The translations under genes were made by a program, and so were the position numbers. A DNA stretch of 63,316 nucleotides, counting the filler, from Chlamydiia bacterium (GTDB lineage: Bacteria; Chlamydiota; Chlamydiia; Chlamydiales; FEN-1388), in assembly GCA_903848235.1 (NCBI GenBank). It is 12 parts of 12 records of this genome, joined end to end, with 100 filler letters (N's around TTAATTAATTAA, not from the genome) between each part and the next. Parts side by side here need not be neighbours in the genome. Positions count along the whole stretch, not along the records: positions 31,593 to 35,000 come from CAINFV010000234.1; 11 more parts are not named here. One strand, 5' to 3'. A model generated the notes under the pieces. That model searched no databases, was not told the DNA's origin, and saw only the letters and a list, made by a program, of their open reading frames with translations. Positions 27,616-55,595 of this stretch are shown one piece after another. The stretch's first letter is position 1. The number at the start of each line of letters is the position of its first letter.

Positions 27616-29426
27616 ATGGCTAGCCCAATGTCAAATTATTCCAACTCCCAAGATTCACAAGACTTCTTAGGGGACTATAGAAAAAAAATTGTAGAAAACG
27701 ACCCCAGATTAGAATTTCACCAAGACGTGATTAAAGATTTCGGCGAGTCGTATGAAAGAGCGTATCAATTATGGAACACGTTTTACGCAGAGGCATATAA
27801 AGACCTGTCTTACTACCTGGGAAACCAATGGAGCCTCGAAGAGCTGGCCTACCTGAACAATCAGAGGCGGTCTTCCTTCACGTACAACAAGATCAGACGC
27901 ATAATTAACCTCGTTCAGGGCTACCAGCGTAAAAACCGCCTTTCTAGCGTAATTAGACCCATTGAGAACGCCTCAGAAGAAACGGCCGAGCAGCTCTCGG
28001 ACTGTCTGCAGTACGTTATGCAATCGGCCGATGGGTATGAGGCAATATCTGACGCATTCAAAGGCGCACTGACGACCGGCTTGTCATTCCTTTCTCCTTG
28101 GATTGACTATCGAAACGACCCAGTATCCGGTGACATTAAATTCCATCGCGACGATTGGAACGCGGTCATCCTCGACCCGTTCTTCACGAAGAAAGACTTG
28201 TCCGACTGCTCTTTTGTTGCTCGACGCAAATTCCTGTCCAGAACGGAGATTATATCGCTGCTTCCTGACAAAGAGGATGTGATTAATTCACTGCCATGGG
28301 GTTCAAGAGACGACAAGTTCACCTATATGCCTTATGCAAGACAATGGGGCATGCAGAAGTTGCTCAACTACACGGAGTATTGGCGCACCAGATGGGAAAA
28401 CAAAGAAGTCCTCGTCGACATGTCAACAGGCGAGACGAAAGAATGGGATGGCGACAAGAAACGCCTTCAGTTATTTAGGCAGCTATACCCTCAACTAGAA
28501 GTGATTCGCAAGCCCGTCAAGACGGTGGAGTTGGGAATCATCGTAGAAGGAGAATTATTACACTATGGAAAAGACCCCTTCGGCCTCAATGAATATCCTT
28601 TTGTGCCGTTTATGGCCATTTTCGAGCCATCCTACGACCTTTTCACTTGGAAAGTGCAATCACTCGTCAGAATCGTGCGAGACCCGCAAACAGAACTCAA
28701 CAAACGCCGCTCCAAGATGGTTGATATCATCGATAATCAGCTTAATAGCGGATGGATAGCCAAGACGAACTCCGTCTCTAACCCAACATCTCTCTACAAA
28801 ACAGGCCAAGGCCAGGTCATATTCCTGAAGCCAGAAGCCCAGATGACGGACATCCAGCGCCTCAACCCCGCTGACATCCCTCCCGCCATGTTCCAACTCG
28901 AGCAGGAATTCGAGAAAGACATCATGGAGATTGCAGGTGTTAACTCCGAACTATTCGGCATGGCCGACAATGACAAGATAGAGACCGCTGGCATGCTTGC
29001 CAAGATGCGCCAAAGCGCTGGCCTTGTGAACCTGCAAGACATCTTCGATGGACTGCGGGATTCTCAGAAGCTGCTCGGGCGCAAAGTCCTCAAGCTGATT
29101 CAATTGAAATATACCCCAGAGAAAATCGAACTCATCACCAAAAAGAAACCATCAGACGAATTTTATAGTAAAACGTTTGCTAAGTATGACGTTGTCGTGG
29201 AAGAGGGTGTTCTGACGGATACCCAACAGCAAACTGAGTACCTGCAACTTAGCGCTTTGAAAATGATGGGTGTCAATGTCACCGACGAGGAGTTAATCGA
29301 CGCGTCCAATCTCCATGGCAAGAAGAAGATGAAAGACCGCATGGCAGCGCAGGCGCAACAAGCGCAACAGGTGCAAGAGATGCAGACGAAGATGGCGATG
29401 GAAAACCAGGCCGTCTTAACCGAAGC
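27616..29426 (+). CDS. Portal protein, P22-like (3' truncated)
   Basis: YYLGNQW, TYNKIRRIINLVQGYQRKNR, SLVRIVRDPQTELNKRRSK, YDVVVEEG. Confidence 0.85.
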
Positions 29427-30203: not shown

Positions 30204-31399
30204 GGGTCGTGTACTTTCTTAACTGAAAGATTTTAATACTACCTCATCAATTAATAAGTTGGGGTAGCGATGAATTCGAATCTTGATGTTTCACTATTTT
30301 GGTGCTGGCAGAAGGATTGTCCCGACTTCGGAAAAAAAGGTGCAGGAAACATAGTTTTGAAAGAACGATATGGGAAGGATAACAGAGCGCTTCTCAAGTG
30401 CAGAACTTGCGGCCATTGCTTCAGCGAAACTCATGGAACGCCGTTCTTCGGCCTTAACACTCCGATTGATGAGGTCTGCCGAACACTAGCTCTGATTCCA
30501 GAGAAGGGAAGCATTCGGGGAGCTGCGCGGATTTCGGGGCATGATAAGGGCACAATATGCAAGTGGGTTGATCTCGCTGGCAAGCACTGCAGAGAAGTGA
30601 CGGATTATTTTTTGAAAGAACTTCGCCTAGATCGCGTGCAGGTTGATGAGATCTGGTCGTATATAAAAAAAGGAGAAAAACGTCGCTGTCAACGATTCGA
30701 AAGAATGCGGTGATGTCTACAGCCTTACTGCAATAAAACCTGACACTCGACTTTTTTTGAGTCATCATGAAGGAAAGAGAACTGCAGAGGATTGTGTCGA
30801 ATTATTTGGCGATATTGAAAGACGTCGCGCAATTGATTCGCCTATTCCTGTATTTACTTCAGATAACTGGGATCCTTTCGAGGAAGGGCTTCTCAATGTT
30901 TATGGCTTTTTTGAAACGCCGCCTTACTGCGGAATCGGAAGAAAGCCTGATCCGATACTGGTTCCTTACCCAAACCTGAAGTACGCAAAGGTGTGCAAGA
31001 AAAGAGAGAAAGGACGACTCGTTGAGGTAATACAACGTGTTGTTTATGGCGATCCGAAAGATGTAATGCACTTACTTGGTGCCGATTCTGGAGGAAAGAT
31101 CAATACGGCATATATCGAGCGGCTGAATCTCACAATTCGCAATTCATTGGCTCGATTCATACGCAAGAGCATGAATTGCAGCAAGATCTTGGGGAGGCAT
31201 ACTCATGCCCTGGACTTTTTCCAAGCTTGGTACAACTTTGTCAAGCCGCATAAGTCACTTCGGCGAAGAATTGATCAAGGAAGGAAGAAATGGATGCAAA
31301 GAACACCTGCGATGGCAGAAGGACTGACTGATCATGTATGGACTATCAAGGAGCTAATGGCATTCAGGATACCAATTCAATGATATGAGTACACGACCC
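30204..31399 (+). mobile_element. IS1-family insertion sequence, archaeal type (orfA 30270-30713, orfB frame to 31383)
   Basis: TIR GGGTCGTGTACT / AGTACACGACCC; Zn-ribbon and HTH, VDEIWS, TSDNW, NTAYIERLNLTIRN DDE motifs. Confidence 0.88.
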
Positions 31400-31592: not shown

Positions 31593-31828
31593 AATTGCTG
31601 TTTCTACCTGTAACGTTCTCCTTGAATTTTGGACTTTTCTTTCCACCCGATTTCTTGTGAAAATTTTGAAGTTTTCAGCTTTTCTTCTTTTGTCTTTGTA
31701 ATCGTCATTCCTGATGAACTCTAATGAGCGAAACTTGTCGAATCGAAAACAAAGACCAATCCCTTTAAAGGATTCCCCCCATTTGCGATCACTTGCCTGC
31801 TTTTTTCCAACAAAGAAAGCATCCACAA
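31593..31828 (+). repeat. 5' pseudo-LTR (second copy 34672-34909)
   Basis: ~237-bp near-identical direct repeat; differences seen are one substitution and two 1-nt indels. Confidence 0.95.
31692..31756 (+). ncRNA. Minimal type I hammerhead ribozyme, copy 1
   Basis: CUGAUGA 31711-17, stem II cuc/gag, GAAAC, GUC site 31737-39, stem I auuc/gaau + ucg/cga + gucuuugu/acaaagac. Confidence 0.82.
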
Positions 31829-31882
31829 AGAGTATTTTTCTGCAAGAAGATCCAATCACGGACCATTTATTTCTCAGAAACA

Positions 31883-32644
31883 ATGGACCGCACCACTAAT
31901 GTCTTGGAAGACACCATTAGTGCACAAATCCGGCAGCTGCGTATTGCAGAGTTCAACCTAATTCAACGAAAGAATAGCTTGATCAAGCTGTTGGCACACC
32001 AGAGCGCGGGGACACTGCCGAAAGACCTGAGTTTTGTTTTCAAAGAAGTTGCTCTTCCGAAGACATTCTCAGCGAACATCGTAGCAGACCTCCACAGCAA
32101 AGAGCAAACAATTCTTCTTGCAGCTAAGAATGAAATACTTGCATTGCGAATCGCGACTTATCAGGAGAACGTAGGAAAATTGGAAAATGAGGCTTTGCAG
32201 ATGAATCAGACCGACAACATCCGCGCAAGCTTCATCACCCAGCTCCCTGAACTAGCATCGCAACCAGACATGCTCAAACAAGTGATCTCGAAGATGATGC
32301 TCCAGAAGTCAGCACTCGAGACCAGAAGCAGAGCCAAAGCAGCAGCAGTTCCGATGATCGTAGAACCAGAACCAGCAGCAGCACCCAACATTGCAGACCT
32401 CTTCAAGCTCGTCACTCAATTGGCGGCTACAGTTTCACTGCTCCAGAAAAACGGAGCTCGGACCTCGGACCGTCACTCCGCACCATCGTCCGGAAACACC
32501 AGAGAGTCGTCTGCGAAGAGAGAACAGCCGAAAAGACCTGCCGAAGTCGACAGATCTCGTTCGCCCCGGCAACCAAGAGGGCAGAGCCCGCGCCACGGAG
32601 ACCGCGATACCGCGAAAACCAAGGAAACCCGCCGAAGACGCTAG
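31883..32644 (+). CDS. Retroelement ORF1: coiled coil plus basic Arg/Ser-rich tail
   Basis: ATG 31883 just after pLTR; helical Q/E/L-rich body; RSRSPRQPRGQSPR tail. Confidence 0.7.
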   Translation: MDRTTNVLEDTISAQIRQLRIAEFNLIQRKNSLIKLLAHQSAGTLPKDLSFVFKEVALPKTFSANIVADLHSKEQTILLAAKNEILALRIATYQENVGKLENEALQMNQTDNIRASFITQLPELASQPDMLKQVISKMMLQKSALETRSRAKAAAVPMIVEPEPAAAPNIADLFKLVTQLAATVSLLQKNGARTSDRHSAPSSGNTRESSAKREQPKRPAEVDRSRSPRQPRGQSPRHGDRDTAKTKETRRRR

Positions 32645-34485
32645 AGCAACTAGCTATAGATAAGTACTCCTGCATCACAAATAAAGGAGTATTCAATCTG
32701 TCAGACTATGCCCTTTCTCCCTTAGAATCTTTAGTCCTTGGCCTCGGCCTCAATTTCATCCCATCCCCTTGTACAAATCCCGCCACTCTTCTCCCTCCCA
32801 TACTAAAATCCATAGCTAAACTCCACCGAACCCTAGAACTAGCCATGTACTTTAAATCTATACCTACTGCCGATCCTACGATTCCTTTCAATCATACGAA
32901 GACCCCTTGGATTCCCAATCCCAGCCCTAACTACTCGGCCTCCTTACAACTGTACATAGACAAAATCACAATCGTAGCCACAGAGACCATTCTCTCATCC
33001 CGCATTCGACTTAACGAAATAGACACCCTCCTGTACAAAACTCTCCTTCACTTGCGTCGTCAGAATCACATTGTCATGAAGCCTGCTGATAAAAATCTCG
33101 GCCTATGTATCCTCAACAGAGTAGACTACATTGACATGTGTATGACCCATTTGAACGATGCCCTTACATACCAACCTGTCCCTAAATACACACACAAAGT
33201 AGTCGTTGACAAATTACGTAAAATAATTCTCTCCGCGGGACGTATGTTTGTAGAAAATAGCATCGACCTAACTCCCCTCTCTAAATCTTTGCTGCAATAT
33301 GAGAACCCAGAAACCTGCAGAATCTCACTCTTTTATTGCCTTCCCAAAGTACATAAGAACCAAGCAAAACCCCCCGGCAGACCCATTGTCTCCTCATGCA
33401 GCTCTCTCACATATCCTGCATCGAAGTATGTAGACCACTGCCTCAGCCCTTTCCTTAAATTCTTAAACACTATATGTCGTTCCTCAAACGACTTCATTCG
33501 ACTGCTCACCTTCACAAAGCAAGCACCGACTGATATCATTCTGTGTGCGGACGTCACTTCTCTCTACCCAAACATCCCCCTGGATTTTGGGCTCGAGAAA
33601 GTGTCTTCCCTACTCAACCATCTAAATCAGATTCACAAGTTAATCCCTCCCAAGGACCTCGTATTCTGCCTTGACCTGATGAACTGGGTGTTATATAACA
33701 ACTATATCTCATTTGCTAATACTACGTACAAACAAATTAAAGGTACAGCGATGGGCACACCTGTCGCTGTCACTTTTGCCCAACTCTTCCTAGCCGCCAT
33801 AGAGCTTCCTATCCTTTCTACTACTCCCTGCACACTCTATCAACGCTATATAGATGACATATGTGCTTTAATCTCTGAATCCGCCGCCTCAGATTTCATT
33901 GCACAATTTAATGCTGTATGCCCATCTATCAAATTAGAAGCAGTCACTATCGGACCTAATGGCATCTTCCTTGACCTTTCCCTCCACGTTGTGAATGGCT
34001 CCACCTCCTACACAATCTATCAGAAACCAGCCAATAAATACCAATATATTCCTTTCCTCTCTGCACACAACCTGTCTGTCTTCTATAATTGGGTGTTTGA
34101 AGAATTGAAGCGATATCGTGTGAAATGCTCTACTCACTCAGACTTCGTCTCTCTTACTCTACTCTTCGCTGAACGCCTTAGAGCTAGAGGCTACCCTCCT
34201 AGAATATTTGCCCTTGCCATGACCAATCTACCATCGCGAGCATCTCTACTCAAACCCATCCTCAACCCCAATAAAATCAATATTAAGCACAAAGCCTTAG
34301 GCCCTGTCCTCACCTTAGCCTTGCCTAGCTTACATCCCAATCCTAGATGGAAACTGCTTCTAGCAATTCCCCCTCAAATATTTTACAACCGTCATTATTT
34401 TGAGGCCTATGGAAATAAACAACTAGTAATTGGAAAGCGCAACCCTCCTAACGTCGCCTCCTATGTCACTCACAGCAAATTATAG
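32251..34485 (+). CDS. Penelope-type reverse transcriptase (frame open from 32251, first ATG 32845; no GIY-YIG)
   Basis: VFNLS..LGLNFIP N-terminal motif upstream of ATG, KPADKN, LPKVHK, GRPIVS, ADVTSLYPNIP, GTAMG, RYIDD, FLDL. Confidence 0.9.
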   Translation, partial: TSIATRHAQTSDLEDDAPEVSTRDQKQSQSSSSSDDRRTRTSSSTQHCRPLQARHSIGGYSFTAPEKRSSDLGPSLRTIVRKHQRVVCEERTAEKTCRSRQISFAPATKRAEPAPRRPRYRENQGNPPKTLEQLAIDKYSCITNKGVFNLSDYALSPLESLVLGLGLNFIPSPCTNPATLLPPILKSIAKLHRTLELAMYFKSIPTADPTIPFNHTKTPWIPNPSPNYSASLQLYIDKITIVATETILSSRIRLNEIDTLLYKTLLHLRRQNHIVMKPADKNLGLCILNRVDYIDMCMTHLNDALTYQPVPKYTHKVVVDKLRKIILSAGRMFVENSIDLTPLSKSLLQYENPETCRISLFYCLPKVHKNQAKPPGRPIVSSCSSLTYPASKYVDHCLSPFLKFLNTICRSSNDFIRLLTFTKQAPTDIILCADVTSLYPNIPLDFGLEKVSSLLNHLNQIHKLIPPKDLVFCLDLMNWVLYNNYISFANTTYKQIKGTAMGTPVAVTFAQLFLAAIELPILSTTPCTLYQRYIDDICALISESAASDFIAQFNAVCPSIKLEAVTIGPNGIFLDLSLHVVNGSTSYTIYQKPANKYQYIPFLSAHNLSVFYNWVFEELKRYRVKCSTHSDFVSLTLLFAERLRARGYPPRIFALAMTNLPSRASLLKPILNPNKINIKHKALGPVLTLALPSLHPNPRWKLLLAIPPQIFYNRHYFEAYGNKQLVIGKRNPPNVASYVTHSKL

Positions 34486-34770
34486 AATACGAGCCCCTCC
34501 TACCCCCACTCCCTCACCTCTCTCTCAACACTACTGCCACTACACTTCATCACTACTATCTACATCCCCTCCAATCCCACTGTCTCTACTATTTCCTGCC
34601 TCTATATCTACACCGTACCTATTTTATTGCTTCGCATGGGGCAACCCCCCCCCCCACGCGCGCGGTCAGAGAATTGCTGTTTCTACCTGTAACGTTCTCC
34701 TTGAATTTTGGACTTTTCTTTCCACCCGATTTCTTGTGAAAACTTTGAAGTTTTCAGCTTTTCTTCTTTT

Positions 34771-34836
34771 GTCTTTGTAATCGTCATTCCTGATGAACTC
34801 TAAATGAGCGAAACTTGTCGAATCGAAAACAAAGAC
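34771..34836 (+). ncRNA. Minimal type I hammerhead ribozyme, copy 2
   Basis: Same core as copy 1; only difference is one extra A in the stem II loop. Confidence 0.82.
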
Positions 34837-35100
34837 CAATCCCTTTAAAGGATTCCCCCCCATTTGCGATCACTTGCCTGCTTTTTTCCAACAAAGAAAG
34901 CATCCACAATGAAGTCAAAAAAATGTTTTTATTTCGGGACGAATTTCGAGGAGAGTGTGCTAAAGGTGAAGTAACCGTTTTTTACGGTCAAAATCAACGG
35001 NNNNNNNNNNNNNNNNNNNNNNNNNNNNNNNNNNNNNNNNNNNNTTAATTAATTAANNNNNNNNNNNNNNNNNNNNNNNNNNNNNNNNNNNNNNNNNNNN

Positions 35101-42197: not shown

Positions 42198-42647
42198 TTA
42201 TGATACATCAAAGATTTGGCTAGCCTTAGTGCCGTTGATTGTCCCCTTGTCTCTATATTCTGTTAGCTCATCGAATCGCTTTCCTGCTATAATTCCGACG
42301 ATTAAAATATGAAATGCTACCAGAGTTATAACTCCCGGAAATATGAGCATGTAAACAAGCTCTATCCTCTGATCTATCACATATAGAAGTATAGCCATAG
42401 CTATGGCGATCACAATAAGAAACACAAAGGCCTTTGGACCACCATCGTTTTGTTGTTCTGCCAAGTATATCGCACAATCCAGATGATCACATTCTTCGCC
42501 CTCCTTGGGCTTATCTTTCCATTCTCGTCCGCAATTGGCAACCCATTTATCAGTATAATAGTAAAGGTCTCCAGTAAAATTACCTACCTCATATACGGTC
42601 TTGTACTTCTTGATCTTCCCCTCTGCTATTTGTAGCTGAACCGCCAT
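42198..42647 (-). CDS. Membrane protein of uncharacterised CDHLDC family, paralogue 3
   Basis: CGREW...CDHLDCAIY, two TM, ELTEYRDKGTING. Confidence 0.8.
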   Translation of the reverse strand: MAVQLQIAEGKIKKYKTVYEVGNFTGDLYYYTDKWVANCGREWKDKPKEGEECDHLDCAIYLAEQQNDGGPKAFVFLIVIAIAMAILLYVIDQRIELVYMLIFPGVITLVAFHILIVGIIAGKRFDELTEYRDKGTINGTKASQIFDVS

Positions 42648-42659
42648 CCTTGGTCCTCC

Positions 42660-43145
42660 TCATCGCCAGAACTGCCACCAGTGCCTTGCCTTCGTTTTTT
42701 CCTGATCTCCAAAAATCTGCCAAGCGGTAATACCGTTGATCGTACCCTTGTCTTTAAATTCGGTTAATTCTTTGAATCGCTTTCCTTCTCTAAGTCCGCC
42801 AAATAAAAACCAAAATGCTAATAGAGTCAGGGCTCCTGAGATCATAATCGCAAAACCACCCATTTGCCTGCATCCGATGACAAACCCAATAATCATAACG
42901 GCGGCGGCGAGTACAATCAAAAATATAAATACGTCTGGTTTTTCCTTCCTGTCAGATTCTGCTACGTAAATTGCACAGTCTAGATGATCGCATGCTTGGC
43001 TCTCTGTTCCGGGTTTCCATTCTCGTCCACATTTCGTGACGTATTTATCGATACAGGAACCTCCGTCACCACACGGCACAAATAGCACTTGAGTCACCCT
43101 GTATCTCTTGATTTTTCCATCTGCAGTCTGTAATCGCACCACCAT
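42660..43145 (-). CDS. CDHLDC family paralogue 2
   Basis: Same motifs; C-terminal WWQFW. Confidence 0.8.
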   Translation of the reverse strand: MVVRLQTADGKIKRYRVTQVLFVPCGDGGSCIDKYVTKCGREWKPGTESQACDHLDCAIYVAESDRKEKPDVFIFLIVLAAAVMIIGFVIGCRQMGGFAIMISGALTLLAFWFLFGGLREGKRFKELTEFKDKGTINGITAWQIFGDQEKTKARHWWQFWR

Positions 43146-43156
43146 CCTTGGTCCTC

Positions 43157-43813
43157 CTATTCTAGCCTGCCAACAGGAGCATTTAGCGAGTGTGGGTCTT
43201 CAGAGATTTGACGGGCCTTGATACCTTTGATCGTTCCATTATTCTTAAATTCGTTCAGCTCATCCAAACGTTCTTCAACTCCGGGACGAGAGCCCCAAAA
43301 ACAAATCGCCAGGAAGGCCGAGATTATTGAAATCATAAAGGTGTATTTTACAAACCCAATTTCGAATCTTATCTCTTCTATGACTACAAAAGCGAAAAAT
43401 ATTACCGCAATAGCAGCAAGAAAACGCCCGATAATCCGTTTTGATCGCCAATTTAAAGAAAAAATTGCCCCTATGGAGAAGGGTACTAAATAAAGAAATG
43501 AGACTGCTGCAAGCCAACTTATTCCTTTTAGATCTGCTATGACTGTAATAACGAAAGAAATTACTACCATAGCAGCAAAAAAACGTCTAGACCACTTATT
43601 CGCCCGCAAATGTTCAGCTACGAGGTAAATTGCGCAATCCAGATGATCGCATTCTTGGTGAGGCTCGGGTTTATAGTACCATGTTCTTCCGCATTTGGTA
43701 ACCCATTTTTCGAATTTATAAGAATATTCAGATTTTGTGGGATGTAAATCTACTCCATACGCGGTGTGGTATTCCTTGATCTCGCCATTCTCTAGTTGTA
43801 GCCGTAAACCCAT
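43157..43813 (-). CDS. CDHLDC family paralogue 1 (four TM)
   Basis: MGLRLQLENGEIKEY aligns with paralogue N-termini; CDHLDCAIY; ELNEFKNNGTIKG. Confidence 0.8.
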   Translation of the reverse strand: MGLRLQLENGEIKEYHTAYGVDLHPTKSEYSYKFEKWVTKCGRTWYYKPEPHQECDHLDCAIYLVAEHLRANKWSRRFFAAMVVISFVITVIADLKGISWLAAVSFLYLVPFSIGAIFSLNWRSKRIIGRFLAAIAVIFFAFVVIEEIRFEIGFVKYTFMISIISAFLAICFWGSRPGVEERLDELNEFKNNGTIKGIKARQISEDPHSLNAPVGRLE

Positions 43814-43954
43814 CCAGGTACCTTCTTTCTCGTTGCCGGAACTGCCACCAGCTTTTAGCCTGTCCTTCTTCCCGCAACATCCGCCAGGTCCTTGGATGTC
43901 GCCCACTTCCAGACCTCAAAGCCACCATGCCCATCGATCGCCCTAACCTACTCA

Positions 43955-50333: not shown

Positions 50334-51335
50334 ATGAGAATTGCATGGTTCGGTCTTCAAGTACTAGCTCTGCTCATAGCAAGCAGTCTCGGCGCCATGA
50401 GCGATAGTGAACGCATTAAATCTTTTGAAGCTCTGACAGAAAAAGATACTAAAAGCATCCCAAGACACCTCCTGCGATGGCTTGACACACAAACAGTACC
50501 GATCGACCCTCGAGCAATCTCCGGTGACTATGAACAGATCAAAGAGATGCTCGGCAGAATCTCAAAGCATATCAAAAAATCATCCTCCGTAGGTTCCATG
50601 GAAGGAAACAGAGAAAAAAATGCACATACTAAAATTCCAGCCATCGACGAGACCCGAACTCTGCGGCACATCGACAACTTTTACCTCAGCGCCAATGACG
50701 TCCTCACTCCTCTGCAAGAGTATATCATCAGCCAAGGCCCTCTTGAAACGACATTGCCGGACTTTTGGCATGCCATCATCGAAGCAAACATATCCACCAT
50801 TGTCATGCTTTCCATGCCATCTGACGCCGGCGGCAGAAACCCAGCATACTGGGGAAAGAACCGATTTCCCACTGTCATGTTCGGATGGAAAATAGAGGAA
50901 AAGGACGGCGAAGAGGTAGTAGATACAAGTGAAGCAATACCTATTCAGCGTATTGTCAGGAGAACCTTTCAGGCAACTCATGAAGAATCTAAAGAGACGA
51001 GAACGATCAGTCATATCCACTATGAGAACTGGCCTGACAATGGAGCTCCAGAACCTATTTTATTCCATAGGTTCCTTCATTTGATCAGCAAGATCCACCC
51101 TGTCGCTTCATCTTCGATTCTTGTCCACTGTTCGGCCGGTCTTGGCCGCTCAGGAACATTCGTCGCATCGCATAGCTTATGCAAAGAAATCCACGCCCTC
51201 CATCCAGCAACCGTCAACATCCCCAAAAGAATCGTCGAACTTCGCATGCAACGGCCATATGTCGTCAGCACCGCTGTACAAATAGAAGCGATTTATACAG
51301 CGGTACGACAGTGTGCTGAGGAGCAACATCCCTAG
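50334..51335 (+). CDS. Classical-type protein tyrosine phosphatase with signal peptide
   Basis: YIISQGP, DFW, WPD loop, VHCSAGLGRSG. Confidence 0.9.
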   Translation: MRIAWFGLQVLALLIASSLGAMSDSERIKSFEALTEKDTKSIPRHLLRWLDTQTVPIDPRAISGDYEQIKEMLGRISKHIKKSSSVGSMEGNREKNAHTKIPAIDETRTLRHIDNFYLSANDVLTPLQEYIISQGPLETTLPDFWHAIIEANISTIVMLSMPSDAGGRNPAYWGKNRFPTVMFGWKIEEKDGEEVVDTSEAIPIQRIVRRTFQATHEESKETRTISHIHYENWPDNGAPEPILFHRFLHLISKIHPVASSSILVHCSAGLGRSGTFVASHSLCKEIHALHPATVNIPKRIVELRMQRPYVVSTAVQIEAIYTAVRQCAEEQHP

Positions 51336-51356
51336 CCCGAGGTTACTAGGCTACAC

Positions 51357-53372
51357 TCAAGCCGAAATGGTTGATTGCTTCTCTACCGTTGCCTCCCATC
51401 GTAGATCTGGTCGGTGTAAAACTTCTGTAGCTGCATTGTGAATAGCTTTGATCTGCTCATAGTGAGGCCTGGAAACGATCTGCAATGTTCCTAAGGTTTC
51501 AGAAGGATCAGCATTACGAGTCCATGTAGCAGCTACTTGAGCATCTTCACTGACACCACTACGATAATAAAAATCGATCCGATCTGCATACGCCAGGAAT
51601 GTATCATGTATACGCTGCGGCAATAACAGTCCTTTTTGTCGCACATCATCTTCGGTCGTTTGAACAAAACGGGTGTCCCGTTCCTGAATAGATGCCCATC
51701 GAACATCGTCCGGTGCTGTGACATGGATCAGCCGAATCTGATACCGCTGTTTCTTAAAGAACTCGAAGGATTTACCTGTAGCAGGACCTGATGAAGTACT
51801 GCCAAAATAGAATGCATACTGTTCGCGAATAAGATTTCCCAAAATCAGATGTGTTGCGGCATTTGACCCTGGTCGCCATTTATTGTAGGCAGCTAGACGC
51901 GCCTCCCGAGATCCATCGCCCTTTAGAAGATCAGCTTGAAAAGATCTTGTTTGATTTTGTAGGCACACATCATCAGGACAAAGGTATGCAAAATTTCTGC
52001 CCGATTCATGAGCTTTTGCCAATTCTTGACGCATTAACACCGTTTTCCCTGAACCAGGAGCTCCAGCCGTGATAACAGCTTCCTTTGCCTTAACAGGATT
52101 GATGGATAGAATTTTTTGAAACAGCTCATTTATGTCATGTCGCAATCTCTGCGATTCTTCTTCCGTATACGCTTCTTTATTATCAAAAGCCTTCCCTGAA
52201 AGAAAACCTTCTAACACCGTCCTGGGCAATGAATACAAATATCCTCTATCGTACATACGATCGACGTTACATACGTCATACACAACACTAGCCATCCTGT
52301 TCTTCTCCTTCACTTTTACTACACCAGCTTGCTGCTGCGAAATCTCATATAAGCATTTTGTAACGGTATCAAATACCAAAGAAACCATTCTCTCTCTTTG
52401 CACCGCCCGTTCTTTATCAGAGAGTGCCGGAGCAATAGTATCCAAGGCCATGCCAGAGTCACGCAAAGCCGTCTCGCCTGCAAGCTGTTGATATGCCCAC
52501 AGAAGAGGATAGCTACACGCCAGAATCGTCCCTGGCCGTGGATGGCATTCTTGTAACCAGGTACGGATAGCGTCTTTTGTTGAAGGACGAGCGTTTTGCC
52601 CCTTGGGAGCATTCACAAAGACTACCTTCGCGGATAAGGCTTGCGCCATATCTTCTGGGATATCGGTCTGACTCCAGACAAGCTTTACCATGTCATACTC
52701 AGTGTCATAGACAGCATCCTCTGGCATCTTCCATCCCTTTTTAAAGGGAAGGATAGAACTCTTCTCATCGCACAGCTTTTCAACAGCATCTTCGCCGCCT
52801 TGCTGCTTTCGTAAATAACGTTCACCAGTGAGAAAAACGAGGGAATCAAATCGTATTCCTCTCTTCCAGGCCGCTACGAGCTGGAATAGATTTCGTCGTA
52901 CGCCGTCGAGAAATGCCCCATGGCAGGCCCCATAGGTATAGCGGTCCAAGGCCGGCGCCCTTTCTGCAAAAAGGCCCATCGAATCTGCGCATTCTTCGAC
53001 CTCCTGACGAATGTCACCTCTTCTCACGCCATCTTTCAGATCCGCTCTCTCTTTGTTCCCTCTCCCCTGAACAACAGAAAGCCAGCACTCCTGTGTCTTT
53101 GCCGTAGCACGAGCCAGATCGTCGCTCTGTTCGTACAGACCATCAAGTTTCAGAAGCGTAATGACATGCGGTGTCAACGCTCCATCGCTTTTAACAAAGA
53201 GCGTCGCCGGGCTTCTCTCTTGTATCATCCATTGTTCGGCCTCCATCGCCGGCGCGCTCTTCGCTTCGGCATAAGCAGCCGCACACGAAACCAGCTGAAC
53301 CGCCATAAAAACTCCTACTGAAAGTGCTATCATTTTACTGATGAGCGAAAAACTTTTAGCTCTATTATCCAT
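51357..53372 (-). CDS. Fusion of exported unknown domain and Zeta-toxin-like P-loop kinase
   Basis: Signal-like N-terminus; TAGAPGSGKT, CPDD in C-terminal half. Confidence 0.65.
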   Translation of the reverse strand: MDNRAKSFSLISKMIALSVGVFMAVQLVSCAAAYAEAKSAPAMEAEQWMIQERSPATLFVKSDGALTPHVITLLKLDGLYEQSDDLARATAKTQECWLSVVQGRGNKERADLKDGVRRGDIRQEVEECADSMGLFAERAPALDRYTYGACHGAFLDGVRRNLFQLVAAWKRGIRFDSLVFLTGERYLRKQQGGEDAVEKLCDEKSSILPFKKGWKMPEDAVYDTEYDMVKLVWSQTDIPEDMAQALSAKVVFVNAPKGQNARPSTKDAIRTWLQECHPRPGTILACSYPLLWAYQQLAGETALRDSGMALDTIAPALSDKERAVQRERMVSLVFDTVTKCLYEISQQQAGVVKVKEKNRMASVVYDVCNVDRMYDRGYLYSLPRTVLEGFLSGKAFDNKEAYTEEESQRLRHDINELFQKILSINPVKAKEAVITAGAPGSGKTVLMRQELAKAHESGRNFAYLCPDDVCLQNQTRSFQADLLKGDGSREARLAAYNKWRPGSNAATHLILGNLIREQYAFYFGSTSSGPATGKSFEFFKKQRYQIRLIHVTAPDDVRWASIQERDTRFVQTTEDDVRQKGLLLPQRIHDTFLAYADRIDFYYRSGVSEDAQVAATWTRNADPSETLGTLQIVSRPHYEQIKAIHNAATEVLHRPDLRWEATVEKQSTISA

Positions 53373-53472
53373 CGCTCTTCCTTCAAAAAGAGATGCCTTC
53401 AGAACTCTTCGATCTTCTCGAGATCACAGAAAAGCCATATACTCACAACGAAATCATTGAGAGGGAGAAAGT

Positions 53473-54531
53473 ATGCCACAGATAGATATTGAAAAGAAAC
53501 GAGCGCTTGATCTTGCTTTAAGCCATATTAAGAAACAATTTGGCGATGGCGCGATCATGTCGCTGGGAAAGCATTCTGAAAATAGAGAGATCAGCTGTAT
53601 TAAGACCGGTGCCATCACCATCGACATGGCGCTTGGTATCGGCGGCGTTCCTCGAGGAAGGGTAGTGGAGATTTTCGGCCCTGAGTCGTCTGGAAAATCA
53701 ACACTAGCACTCCACATCGTGGCGAATGCACAGAAAAATGGTGGTATCGCAGCCTATATCGACGCAGAGCATGCCCTAGACCCTGGATATGCTACAAGGA
53801 TCGGAGCTAACATCAATGAGCTGCTTATCTCGCAGCCTGATAGCGGTGAAGAAGCGTTAAACATTGCCGAAACTCTTGCTAGATCAAATGCCATCGACGT
53901 CATTGTCATCGACTCTGTCGCCGCCCTCCTCCCAAAAGCAGAACTCGAAGGGGAGATCGGGGATTCTTTTGTCGGCCTTCAGGCACGAATGATGTCGCAA
54001 GCGTTACGGAAGCTCACAGCAGCTCTTTCCAAGAGCAATACCTGTGCCATTTTCATCAACCAAATCCGTGAAAAGATCGGCGTGATGTATGGCAATCCAG
54101 AAACAACGACAGGGGGACGCGCACTGAAGTTCTACTCGTCAGTACGGATTGACCTTCGAAAAACAGCTGGGATCAAAGGGGCTGACAATATTGAAATCGG
54201 CAACCGCGTCAAAGCAAAAATCGTAAAAAATAAAATGGCGCCTCCTTTCAGGGTCGCTGAATTTGACATTCTCTTTGCCGAAGGCATCTCTCGTGCAGGG
54301 TCAATCCTCGACCTCGCCTCCGAGATGAACGTCATTGAGAAAAAAGGCGCTTGGTTTAGTTACAAAGGACAACGCCTCGGTCAAGGCCGAGATACCGTTC
54401 GCGATGAGCTCAAGAAGAACGCTAAGCTCCTCGACGAGATCGAAAATGAACTTCTTGCCGCTTGCAAAGAGAAGGCTCCAACGAATCTAGCTCCAAGAAG
54501 CGACACAGAAGAAACTCCAGAGACCGAATAA
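53473..54531 (+). CDS. recA: Recombinase A
   Basis: [43 protein letters not shown]. Confidence 0.98.
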
Positions 54532-54596
54532 CGATCTTTTTCATGAAGCGAGCGTATCAATATGCTCGCTTTTCCAAAAAGCCAGGAAGAGCTTCT

Positions 54597-55595
54597 ATGC
54601 GATATCTAGAGCACGCCTTCTTCATTTGTATCTTCTTTTTGTTCGGATCGCTCAGCGCTGTAAATTCTTTTGAAAGACGCACCGCCTTCAACGCCCTAGT
54701 AGAACGGGACCTACAACTCCTTCCCCCTGACATCCGTGCGTGGCTAGACAAACAGACGATTCCAGTAAAACAGTTCAACAAGGAAGTCGCGAAACTCAAC
54801 TACCAAAAACTCCTCTCAACACTCCATGAAGCGTCTAAATATGTCAAAAAACCAGCCACATATGGCCTTCGACCAGAACACGTCGGAAAAAACGTCCATA
54901 TCGGCTGCGTTCCGTTCGACGAAACACGATCTCTTCGCCATCTCGAAGGGTTTTATATCAGCGCCAGTGACGTTTTAACCCCTGAGCAGACCTATATCGT
55001 CGGAGAAGCTCCCATAGAGCCTACAGAAGACATCTTTTGGCAAGCAATCGTTGAAGCAGATGTCAGAACCATCGCCGCCCTTGTCACTCCAACAGATGGG
55101 GCATATTGGGATAGCTCGCGATTTCCGAAAACCGTGCGCCGATGGAAGATCGAAATGATCAGCGAAGAAGACGAGGGCTACAGCCCTCTCCTCGTAGAAC
55201 AACGCATCATCCGTCGGGTCTTTAAGATCTCATACCATGACGATTGTAGGATCATCACCCATCTTCACTATAAAAATTGGCCGGACCACGGAGCCCCAGA
55301 CCCTGCTTTATTCCATAGATTTCTCGCTCTGCTAGACGATGCTCACCCAGGAAGCTCTTATCCGATCTTTGTCCACTGTGCCGCTGGTATTGGCCGCTCT
55401 GGAACCTTCGTCGCAGCTCATAGCTTACGAAAAGAGGTCCTCATGCATCGGGCAAGCGATGGCCCTCTATCTATCAACATAGCAAAACGAATTTTAGAAA
55501 TGAGGATGCAGCGATACAAGCTGTTAAGCCGCCCCACACAGCTCAGAGCTGTTATAGAGGCCGTTCGTGATGCCATTCAACAAAGAGCGCAGTAG
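54597..55595 (+). CDS. Protein tyrosine phosphatase paralogue with signal peptide
   Basis: YISASDV, WPDHG, VHCAAGIGRSG. Confidence 0.9.
   Translation: MRYLEHAFFICIFFLFGSLSAVNSFERRTAFNALVERDLQLLPPDIRAWLDKQTIPVKQFNKEVAKLNYQKLLSTLHEASKYVKKPATYGLRPEHVGKNVHIGCVPFDETRSLRHLEGFYISASDVLTPEQTYIVGEAPIEPTEDIFWQAIVEADVRTIAALVTPTDGAYWDSSRFPKTVRRWKIEMISEEDEGYSPLLVEQRIIRRVFKISYHDDCRIITHLHYKNWPDHGAPDPALFHRFLALLDDAHPGSSYPIFVHCAAGIGRSGTFVAAHSLRKEVLMHRASDGPLSINIAKRILEMRMQRYKLLSRPTQLRAVIEAVRDAIQQRAQ

Follow-up and report, generated by a model that had tools for sequence, protein, structure and literature searches.

A putative compact Penelope-like element without endonuclease or telomeric tail on a contig of a chlamydial metagenome bin

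The finding consists in full of one contig, CAINFV010000234.1 (C234; 3,408 nt), which belongs to the metagenome bin GCA_903848235.1 and is here placed in the window, the whole 63,316-nt stretch of DNA analysed, to which all coordinates refer. C234 is best explained as an intact endonuclease-less Penelope-like element (PLE), an autonomous and chromosomal retrotransposon of a freshwater microeukaryote, and is eukaryotic contamination mis-binned with the bacterium. It is a member of a large and apparently unnamed freshwater PLE radiation. Because it has no nuclease and no telomere tail and ends within another repeat, it probably inserts at DNA ends that are not of its own making and do not match it, and we favour, with moderate confidence, a Coprina-like element whose primers are non-telomeric DNA 3' ends already in existence.

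Repeat unit, pseudo-LTRs and source

The repeat unit comprises 3,079-3,080 nt, which C234 reads 1.08 times (Table 1), and in run X1 the 3,080-nt unit closed as a clean cycle at 26x; among the loci, 23 of 96 assembled as cycles. Comparison of the four sequencing runs holding the element gave a depth of 26-52x with low variation; in run X2 the depth at the 5' end was 31, rising to 52 at the 3' end, a weak hint given that it is one figure per contig. Positions 31593-31706 had no depth in this comparison because the reads fit the 3' repeat copy. In RNA runs only 5-8% of the element's words were present.

Identity between the two direct repeats (31593-31828 and 34672-34909) is 98.3%, the differences being one substitution and two 1-nt indels, and both alleles of the substitution and of the loop indel were found in other runs. 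Direct repeats of 236/238 nt together with the 3,080-nt cycle identify PLE pseudo-LTRs, the 5' copy being cut by the contig start. The direct repeats of ~237 bp at both ends and the ~3.1-kb unit with intact frames described by the first-pass annotation therefore hold in identity and length, and not in a true 5' edge, since the repeat starts at the contig's first base. Its reading of near-identical repeats as a sign of recent activity was not supported: both repeats come from a single unit that was read beyond its own length and thus cannot date an insertion, and recent activity is suggested instead by the intact frames and the low variation at the given depth. The promoter-like motif of the GCGATCACT region was present in all eight loci of the subclade vs none of 20 other clade loci with a hammerhead core, and TCACT is termed Inr-like for a Penelope pLTR in PMC3846280.

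Table 1 Features of C234 in window coordinates.
Feature	Position	Strand	Remarks
5' pseudo-LTR copy, cut by contig start	31593..31828	+	repeat alignment; C234 begins at 31593
Type I hammerhead-like motif, copy 1	31692..31756	+	core 31711-31739, predicted cut after 31739; z -2.9
Candidate TATA-like box (TTTAAA) and putative initiator (GCGATCACT)	31764..31793	+	motif marks 8-locus subclade
9-bp hairpin with AC-rich loop and 7-nt AC-rich tail; 3'-end signal, internal copy	31798..31828	+	z -1.7, weak
ORF1, 253 aa	31883..32644	+	ATG 31883, stop 32644; long helical hairpin, TxPxDL turn motif common with relatives, basic tail
RT frame, -1 to ORF1	32251..34485	+	PLE RT conserved from about 32662; endonuclease absent
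Candidate -1 slippery site G AAA AAC	32446..32452	+	second candidate at 32491
Pyrimidine-rich 3' untranslated region	34486..34671	+	no Pfam match
3' pseudo-LTR copy	34672..34909	+	hammerhead core 34790-34819, hairpin, tail ending 34909, no CCCTAA
3' flank, member of another repeat family	34910..35000	.	conserved core 34941-35000; in run X1 a cyclic unit of 674 nt; telomeric repeats absent

A microeukaryotic source, as the first-pass annotation had proposed, is supported by the Atlas look-alikes of the RT, which are eukaryotic DUF8422/HTH_animal/RVT_1 clusters, and by the chrysophyte-like ankyrin and kinase genes in the flank of the relative L009 (64% identity over 57% to Spumella vulgaris, the best relative with a name). 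A chrysophyte, the link being drawn via L009, whose RT is only 35% identical to that of C234, is accordingly our best guess for the host. The proposed virus of such a host received no support, as none of the 58 pattern matches in IMG/VR proved to be a relative.

Coding frames and the absent endonuclease

ORF1 was modelled as two long antiparallel helices (pLDDT 89.6), contains no cysteine and ends in a basic tail with 19 K+R vs 8 D+E in 63 aa, in agreement with the coiled coil and basic tail recognised initially. The fold search returned generic helical hairpins only (best Z 9.3, rmsd 8.3), and the ORF1 profile aligned at the FP turn with the N-terminus of P0164 at a probability of just 0.35% and had no match to P0160. 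Overlapping ORF1 by 390 nt, the RT follows in the -1 frame, an arrangement shown to be family-wide: it occurs at 52 of 56 loci having an ORF1, with a strict XXXAAAC in slip phase at 41 of the 52 (phase counts 42:6:0). Moreover, in 3/3 close pairs synonymous changes tracked the ORF1 frame upstream of the slip and, in the core, that of the RT (of nine pairs, six were not counted because they were too diverged or did not align upstream of the slip); neither frame was favoured between the slip and the ORF1 stop. In C234 the slip site is imperfect, no pseudoknot or hairpin was found 3' of it (z +1.1 to +1.5), and an 867-aa ORF1-RT fusion is the predicted product. The -1 frameshift, the telomeric tail of relatives and its lack in C234, and the non-telomeric 3' junction are features beyond those of the first reading.

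Open from 32251, the RT frame has its first in-frame ATG (32845) downstream of the first conserved motif, and all seven named RT motifs stand in one open frame that ends in KRNPPNVASYVTHSKL-stop at 34485. The RT model (pLDDT 92) had telomerase TERT as its top 12 structural matches (Z about 18.9-16.2), most of them covering model residues 11-530, with DGR, group II intron and LINE RTs ranking below. Together with the seven motifs this confirms a Penelope-class RT, and the kinship with retrons, group II introns or LINEs that would have spoken against it was not found, as these fall below the TERT matches. At the sequence level, the RT is 29% identical to P0164, a GIY-YIG PLE; it had no relative in IMG/VR and no match in a single-sequence search of the PDB, and a profile search of the PDB gave weak bacterial RT matches only (E 9e-4 or worse, ≤132 positions). 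RT variants in other runs affected 10 codons synonymously and 13 non-synonymously, which is only weak evidence of selection.

The stop of C234 directly follows the RT thumb, at a motif past which P0164, which is placed outside the C234 clade, runs on. No GIY-YIG-like motif was detected in the six frames of C234, with P0164 as positive control, and there was no Pfam match. Among the relatives, 0/258 have a GIY-YIG motif after the RT, and, of the 246 reaching the end of the profile, 222 stop within 30 aa, so that the loss of the endonuclease noticed at first is well established. The RT trees contained no named Coprina or Athena sequence, and kinship to Coprina was judged without them; none of 30 looked-up proteins bears either name, and P0164 and the amphibian matches appear to be Neptune-type, judged by their Zn-finger linker. 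A literature search found no published account of the freshwater PLE radiation, and the lineage is apparently undescribed, as had been suspected.

Hammerhead, 3' ends and priming

A hammerhead-type core is present in each repeat, at 31711 and 34790. The C234 motif has this core and stems I and II at the family position, with stem I of copy 1 lengthened by an 8-bp helix, yet its A10.1-C11.1 mismatch and CUUG helix III fail the strict hammerhead test, and Rfam reported no ribozyme in C234 at the gathering cut-off or at E≤10. The strict test was passed by 69 family motifs, all of them sense, vs none antisense and 0-1 in 10 shuffles; covariation was seen in stem I, with 47, 47, 45 and 41 of 48 paired vs 36, 19, 25 and 20; and 42 of 48 family cores keep the G10.1-C11.1 pair that C234 does not have. 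The C234 hammerhead thus deviates from its family at two conserved places and its self-cleavage is putative; of the hammerhead-bearing repeats annotated at first, the core at the family position in both copies was retained, and the strict test and Rfam did not recognise a ribozyme. A second ribozyme considered upstream of the 3' repeat was rejected (z +0.3).

Downstream of the hammerhead, 16 of 27 scorable loci of the C234 clade carry a CCCTAA-type tail, which is lacking in C234 and ten others, and tail-bearing and tail-less members stand side by side in one well-supported clade. At least three tandem CCCTAA units occur in 15 of 97 sequences, all on the sense strand; L017 and L033 show a short tail and then telomere repeats, and in telomeric relatives the tail is followed by 4-20 repeat units. 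In C234, none of 15 telomere motifs occurred in at least three copies and no CCCTAA lay within 170 nt of the cut, which leaves room for an unusual host repeat. Fixed 3' ends in the family are shown: C234 ends 90 nt past the predicted cut, L017 and L033 end at 81-84 nt, and all five 3' junctions seen without a tail, taken from short-read contigs that gave neither an empty site nor a 5' junction, join non-telomeric DNA 82-100 nt past the cut site. C234 joins a repeat; L008 and L009 each join a different unique DNA, both at the same point; in L001 the 3' end runs straight into its own RT gene, part of a truncated copy of the element, with no telomere repeat between; and L027 adjoins a host coding frame. 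The flank of C234 (34910-35000) had no match elsewhere in the source genome, among the loci, in Rfam (including rRNA) or in IMG/VR, and its repeat family was present in three of the four runs holding the element. The C234 junction rests on one assembly, because none of the contigs listed for the four runs, a listing short of 16 pieces, bridges 34909/34910. Microhomology past the junction is not claimed, being unusual in one of four junctions (L009, about 1%; others 14-23%).

In the mechanism we propose, a promoter in the pseudo-LTR would yield an RNA longer than one unit, from which ribosomes would make ORF1 and, via a -1 slip, the ORF1-RT fusion. The RT may bind the pseudo-LTR and start copying at the fixed internal AC-rich hairpin and tail ~90 nt past the hammerhead cut site, using as primer a DNA 3' end already in existence. 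For most relatives this primer would be the telomeric G-overhang, paired to the CCCTAA tail of ~1.5 repeats; for C234 and the other tail-less branches it would be a non-telomeric end with little or no homology, left by a break, by erosion of a chromosome end or by truncation of an earlier copy. Repeated rounds would then produce head-to-tail and 5'-truncated copies. Homology-free internal initiation in an AC-rich stem-loop was demonstrated in vitro for an EN+ PLE (PMC11167929).

Among the other explanations, an ordinary telomere-attaching Coprina-type element, whose AC-rich tail pairs with an unusual host telomere repeat and whose flank is a subtelomeric satellite, is unlikely but deserves attention: the distance of the 3' end from the cut is that of the telomeric relatives, the tail of C234 is C/A-rich, its nearest subclade includes the tail-bearing L019 and L081, and its flank is a tandem-type repeat. 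However, no short tandem repeat follows the tail in C234, L008, L009, L001 and L027, whereas the telomeric relatives have their arrays there, and the tails of tail-less elements are unlike one another. Diversity among the tail-less relatives, which join unrelated DNAs, also makes it improbable that a nuclease is borrowed in trans (from the host, satellite-associated or from another element) and directed to a specific repeat as in PLE-X, although the sole C234 junction lies in a recurrent repeat family and insertion genome-wide or into rDNA has been described for EN- PLEs (PMC8557442); no target duplication could be scored, and PMC3846280 gives no evidence of Athena cross-mobilisation by Penelope in Adineta.

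The clean cycle of X1, the cyclic loci and the self-joined end of L001 would also be expected if tail-less head-to-tail arrays themselves capped the chromosomes of a host that lost simple telomeric repeats. We regard this as quite improbable, given that dispersed copies with two repeats also give a cycle and that L027 ends beside a coding frame, and as equally doubtful that tail-less EN- PLEs of some freshwater microeukaryotes gave up pairing to telomeric repeats and extend naked chromosome ends, copy priming on copy, with the arrays of this closest retroelement relative of telomerase as telomere. Cyclic contigs, and hammerheads that might sustain a circular RNA template as modelled in PMC4209133, would likewise fit an extrachromosomal circular retro-replicon or a piece of a virus genome, which is very improbable because relatives have junctions with host genes and telomere repeats, IMG/VR gave no relative and the unit is without capsid or replication gene; the depth rise in X2, as 5'-truncated chromosomal copies would give, adds the weak hint mentioned above. 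That C234 is a true resident of the bacterial genome is hardly credible: it was binned there, and by tetranucleotide profile it ranks 25 of 84 small contigs and so does not stand out, but it carries no bacterial gene, no read was seen joining the element to the bacterial chromosome, 40 related genomes held no full-length match (three give RT-like matches of 45-73 positions only), and the relatives are scattered over the bins of many unrelated phyla, 15 of the 16 lying on contigs <6 kb. The freshwater PLE radiation is a contaminant of prokaryotic bins.

Comparison with known systems

With Coprina, the EN- PLEs of fungi, Selaginella and diatoms (e.g., Coprina-1_Alen, PMC13159263), C234 shares the lack of an endonuclease, the DKN, RT and thumb, an upstream coiled-coil ORF, direct repeats and a hammerhead-type motif, and its relatives also share the reverse-complement telomere tail and the telomeric junctions, whereas C234 itself has no telomeric tail and ends in a non-telomeric repeat. 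Compact PLEs are quoted at 4-6 kb (PMC6431247), compared with 3.1 kb for C234, and the hammerheads of fungal and protist PLEs have a large helix III (PMC4209133), in contrast to the short palindromic helix III of the C234 family. The Athena elements and Terminons of bdelloid rotifers, as described in PMC8557442 and PMC6431247, are alike in their two ORFs with optional frameshift, the coiled coil, the hammerhead-type motif adjoining the 3' end and head-to-tail arrays; C234 differs in having no ACACCC-type tail, no accessory genes and no pseudoknot that we could find, and its host is probably not a rotifer.

PLE-X, the EN- Chlamys-related elements of Selaginella and Chara (PMC8557442), resemble C234 in the missing endonuclease, hammerhead-type motifs and, probably, non-telomeric insertion, and insert in the 28S rDNA of spike mosses or genome-wide by an unexplained route (PMC8557442). 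They have a CxC motif and a cysteine-rich N-terminal extension; C234, by contrast, has a frameshifted helical ORF1 and a place nested within telomere-tailed elements. Neptune-type and Poseidon EN+ PLEs (PAc in vitro, PMC11167929) have an RT homologous up to the last motif and a hammerhead upstream of the AC-rich stem-loop where copies end but, unlike C234, continue into the Zn-finger/GIY-YIG, nick their own target and form a separate branch in the RT tree. Telomerase TERT is the closest solved fold to the C234 RT, including the region N-terminal to the RT core, and extends an existing DNA 3' end; it copies a short template repeatedly, whereas the C234 RT would copy its own mRNA-length template once, and the two are 10-14% identical. 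EN- PLEs have been proposed as a living model of the telomerase ancestor, and their primer source without telomeric pairing was stated as open (PMC8557442). The C234 family is compact, intact and of high depth, and since tail-bearing and tail-less members stand together in one clade, a direct tail-swap test of telomere targeting becomes possible with a small RT.

Contig setting, repeat unit and host

C234, the contig carrying the Penelope-like element (PLE), is 3,408 nt long and is occupied by the element and its flank throughout. It is mis-binned eukaryotic DNA, since none of 40 related genomes held a full-length match (short RT-like matches occurred in three) and its relatives are spread over bins from many unrelated phyla, 15 of 16 sitting on contigs below 6 kb. 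The element is present once in the 2.35-Mb bin of 284 contigs, its tetranucleotide profile is ordinary (rank 25 of 84), and the nearby contigs in the window are bacterial and unrelated to it, with an IS1-type transposase, a phage portal and phosphofructokinase.

The 5' repeat is present from the contig's first base on. In the public sequencing runs X1 and X3 the unit joins back on itself (see table), and in X1 the element forms a single 3,110-nt contig with a 3,080-nt cycle (depth 26, no variant listed), so that C234 represents one unit read 1.08 times, followed by exit into the flank. Such a cycle could come from a tandem array, from scattered copies with two repeats each or from a DNA circle. 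The substitution and the loop indel distinguishing the two repeat copies were each found in both states in other runs; they are thus population variants and provide no clock, and the proposal of the first-pass annotation that near-identical repeats imply recent activity is not upheld. Runs with at least half of the C234 words (four of 20 rows) were pond and freshwater-sediment metagenomes, one of which may be the source of the assembly. Among the relatives, L031 is a 13.4-kb cyclic unit with an ORF1 of about 2,390 aa, and L031 and L034 are giants of Terminon-like size with a frameshifted RT and extra ORFs of 375-862 aa lacking Pfam matches.

Regarding the host, the 9.8-kb flank of the relative L009 carries intron-poor ankyrin, proline/threonine-rich and cNMP-kinase-receiver genes. 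The best organism-named match of the kinase was the chrysophyte Spumella vulgaris (64% over 57%), and Atlas taxa for its domain architecture were eukaryotic, Chlorophyta being commonest among few records. Sequence similarity points to a chrysophyte host for L009, and a chrysophyte host for C234 would be an extrapolation from it. Separately, the 99.5-kb contig L091, binned with Dehalococcoidia, is eukaryote-like and carries several distant copies of PLEs along with CA microsatellites and an 87-copy 16-nt satellite.

Coordinates of features in the window and in relative loci, with the tail-less 3' junctions
Feature	Location	Observation
C234 contig	window 31593-35000	finding spans the entire contig
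Cyclic join	34802 to 31723	
Pyrimidine run, then AG/CAGATC-like motif	window 31830-31856	just past the 3'-end point, ahead of ORF1 start; possible splice acceptor
-1 frame open	from 32251	
Candidate slip site	32446	imperfect G AAA AAC
IS1-family transposase	window 30270-31383	neighbouring contig; split over two overlapping frames
P22-like phage portal gene	window 27616-29424	at contig end
Diverged repeated coding segments	window 42209-43826 and 51006-55324	probable paralogous domains, spaced about 500-660 nt, with 4.2 kb between the members of a second pair
Two hammerhead copies	L029:330-760; L028	about 195 nt apart inside one repeat region; retrozyme-like duplication
Telomere repeats	L016:5-119; L018:1-48	joined straight onto 5'-truncated RT end
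RT fragment	L095:2-2596	adjoins bacterial-type elongation factor G frame; probably chimera or unrelated bacterial RT
Tail-less junction	C234	into a repeat
Tail-less junctions	L008, L009 (one element)	flanking DNA differs between the two
Tail-less junction	L001	into own RT gene
Tail-less junction	L027 (outside C234's clade)	beside host coding frame

Reverse transcriptase, relatives and frameshift

Pfam returned a weak RVT_1 match to the C234 RT and nothing else. Its AlphaFold model (pLDDT 92.5) was closest to telomerase, TERT filling the top 12 rows of the structure comparison (Z 18.9-16.2; human TERT Z 18.1, rmsd 3.6, 391 aligned) and ranking first in Foldseek too, while diversity-generating (DGR, Z 15.7), group II intron (15.6) and LINE/R2 (14.9) RTs ranked lower, in agreement with the PLE class first proposed. 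Atlas look-alikes were eukaryotic DUF8422/HTH_animal/RVT_1 clusters. In the protein search 1,110 of 8,000 scored proteins matched at E<=1e-5, the best 120 (self excluded) at 35-47% identity; at E<=1e-30 the profile picked up the representatives of 6,069 clusters built at 50% identity. Other PLE clades are counted among these, and the figure does not give the size of the C234 clade.

The RT motifs, direct repeats and RT stop all match the first description, which placed the stop where GIY-YIG-bearing PLEs continue into the endonuclease. Among 17 longer proteins, the relative P0164 indeed has a Zn-finger and GIY-YIG following the equivalent motif, and a Closterium protein stops at the same motif with no nuclease. 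No GIY-YIG motif was found in 258 RT relatives, 246 of which extend to the profile end and 222 of these end within 30 residues of it; three of those reaching the profile end bear low-complexity tails of at least 100 residues.

A quick 80-row tree was rooted at the midpoint and built without bootstrap from 49 of 91 loci, with no named Coprina or Athena among its rows. In it C234 fell inside a 36-row clade (SH-aLRT 100), which excluded P0164 and the matches from amphibians, lungfish and pseudoscorpion. Its 8-locus subclade reached SH-aLRT 97 in the tree holding a 32-locus clade and lacked resolution in the 80-row tree. A literature search covering mainly open-access papers found none on this freshwater PLE radiation or on chrysophyte PLEs.

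ORF1 of C234 encodes 253 aa, shares homology with the ORF1s of its clade via a TxPxDL turn motif, and is modelled as a long helical hairpin with generic structure matches only. The RT frame has no start codon ahead of its first conserved motif. Among 56 loci with an ORF1, 52 have the RT in the -1 frame, 41 of these with a strict XXXAAAC heptamer, the slippery-site consensus, in slip phase (counts by phase 42:6:0). Upstream of the slip, synonymous changes in three close pairs favour the ORF1 frame (27, 21 and 20 vs 5, 7 and 5), and in the RT core of the same pairs they favour the RT frame (53, 36 and 53 vs 9, 9 and 12); a C234 variant has five synonymous and two non-synonymous codons upstream in the ORF1 frame, and zero and six in the RT frame. 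Slippage at the candidate site would give a predicted stop-free product of 867 aa; a search for a stimulatory RNA structure in C234 found none. Frameshifting is already known in EN- (endonuclease-less) PLEs, according to a figure legend (PMC8557442, fig. 1). Long frames of 400-540 aa lie 5' of the RT in L005, L071, L076-L078 and L080, and in L077 ORF1 and RT seem fused in a single frame. The pyrimidine run and AG/CAGATC-like motif recur at matching places in L006, L007, L010, L019 and L027.

Hammerheads and 3' ends

At the sequence level the family hammerhead is real, given that 57 of the 97 family sequences contain strict matches, 69 in total and all sense-strand, vs 0-1 in 10 shuffles. Stem I pairing in 48 cores not chosen for pairing (47, 47, 45 and 41, several pair types) exceeded every shuffle, counts that kinship inflates. 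In conventional hammerhead numbering, the hammerhead-like motif of C234 has A rather than G at position 10.1, where 42 of the 48 cores have G-C, and its helix III is CUUG; the 26x consensus of X1 has both features. Helix III of the family is in most cases short and palindromic (CTAG 28, CGCG 9), the dimer-type form described in PMC4209133. For C234 either a loop or a duplex fold is possible, because a CUUG loop can close partly with a C-G pair across its two uridines or can promote duplex formation (PMC10401711). An EN+ (endonuclease-bearing) PLE inserted in vitro without need for hammerhead cleavage (PMC11167929).

In a screen with generally known telomere motifs, at least three tandem CCCTAA units occur in 15 of 97 sequences, all sense-strand. 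The telomeric tail that is the hallmark of Athena and Coprina is present in many C234 relatives: where a core was found (42 loci), a CCCTAA-type motif lies within 230 nt in 21 (background 206 of 1,688 windows). In L017 and L033 the end consists of about 1.5 telomere repeats, 81 and 84 nt past the predicted cut, followed by telomere repeats onward. Within the 32-locus clade 16 loci have a tail, 11 including C234 have none, one is too short and four lack a core, some loci duplicating one element; this tail, one defining feature of Coprina/Athena, was not found in C234. The joins in L016 and L018 are as expected if telomerase capped a truncated copy.

CGA(T/C)CAC is common to C234's 8-locus subclade (8/8 vs 0/20), which includes two tail-bearing members, and by analogy is likely an initiator (compare PMC3846280). 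The five tail-less junctions all lie 82-100 nt past the predicted cut, with telomere repeats at none. The 3' flank of C234 is one member of a diverged repeat family that occurs in X1-X3 and forms a 674-nt cyclic unit in X1; among the run contigs listed, none spans the element/flank junction.

Proposed insertion model and known systems

C234 is a PLE and is EN-. Its insertion is best explained by initiation on a host-supplied DNA 3' end, given the fixed end point, the unrelated flanks and the absence of a nuclease: the RT would start inside the RNA at one fixed position, the AC-rich hairpin/tail, and the primer would be a DNA 3' end provided by the host. It is not a new kind of element, because non-telomeric EN- PLEs are already described (PLE-X, PMC8557442; MjPLE01). 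The proposal parallels Poseidon PAc, for which homology-free internal initiation has been shown (PMC11167929), and C234 would work like Coprina, minus the telomere-pairing tail.
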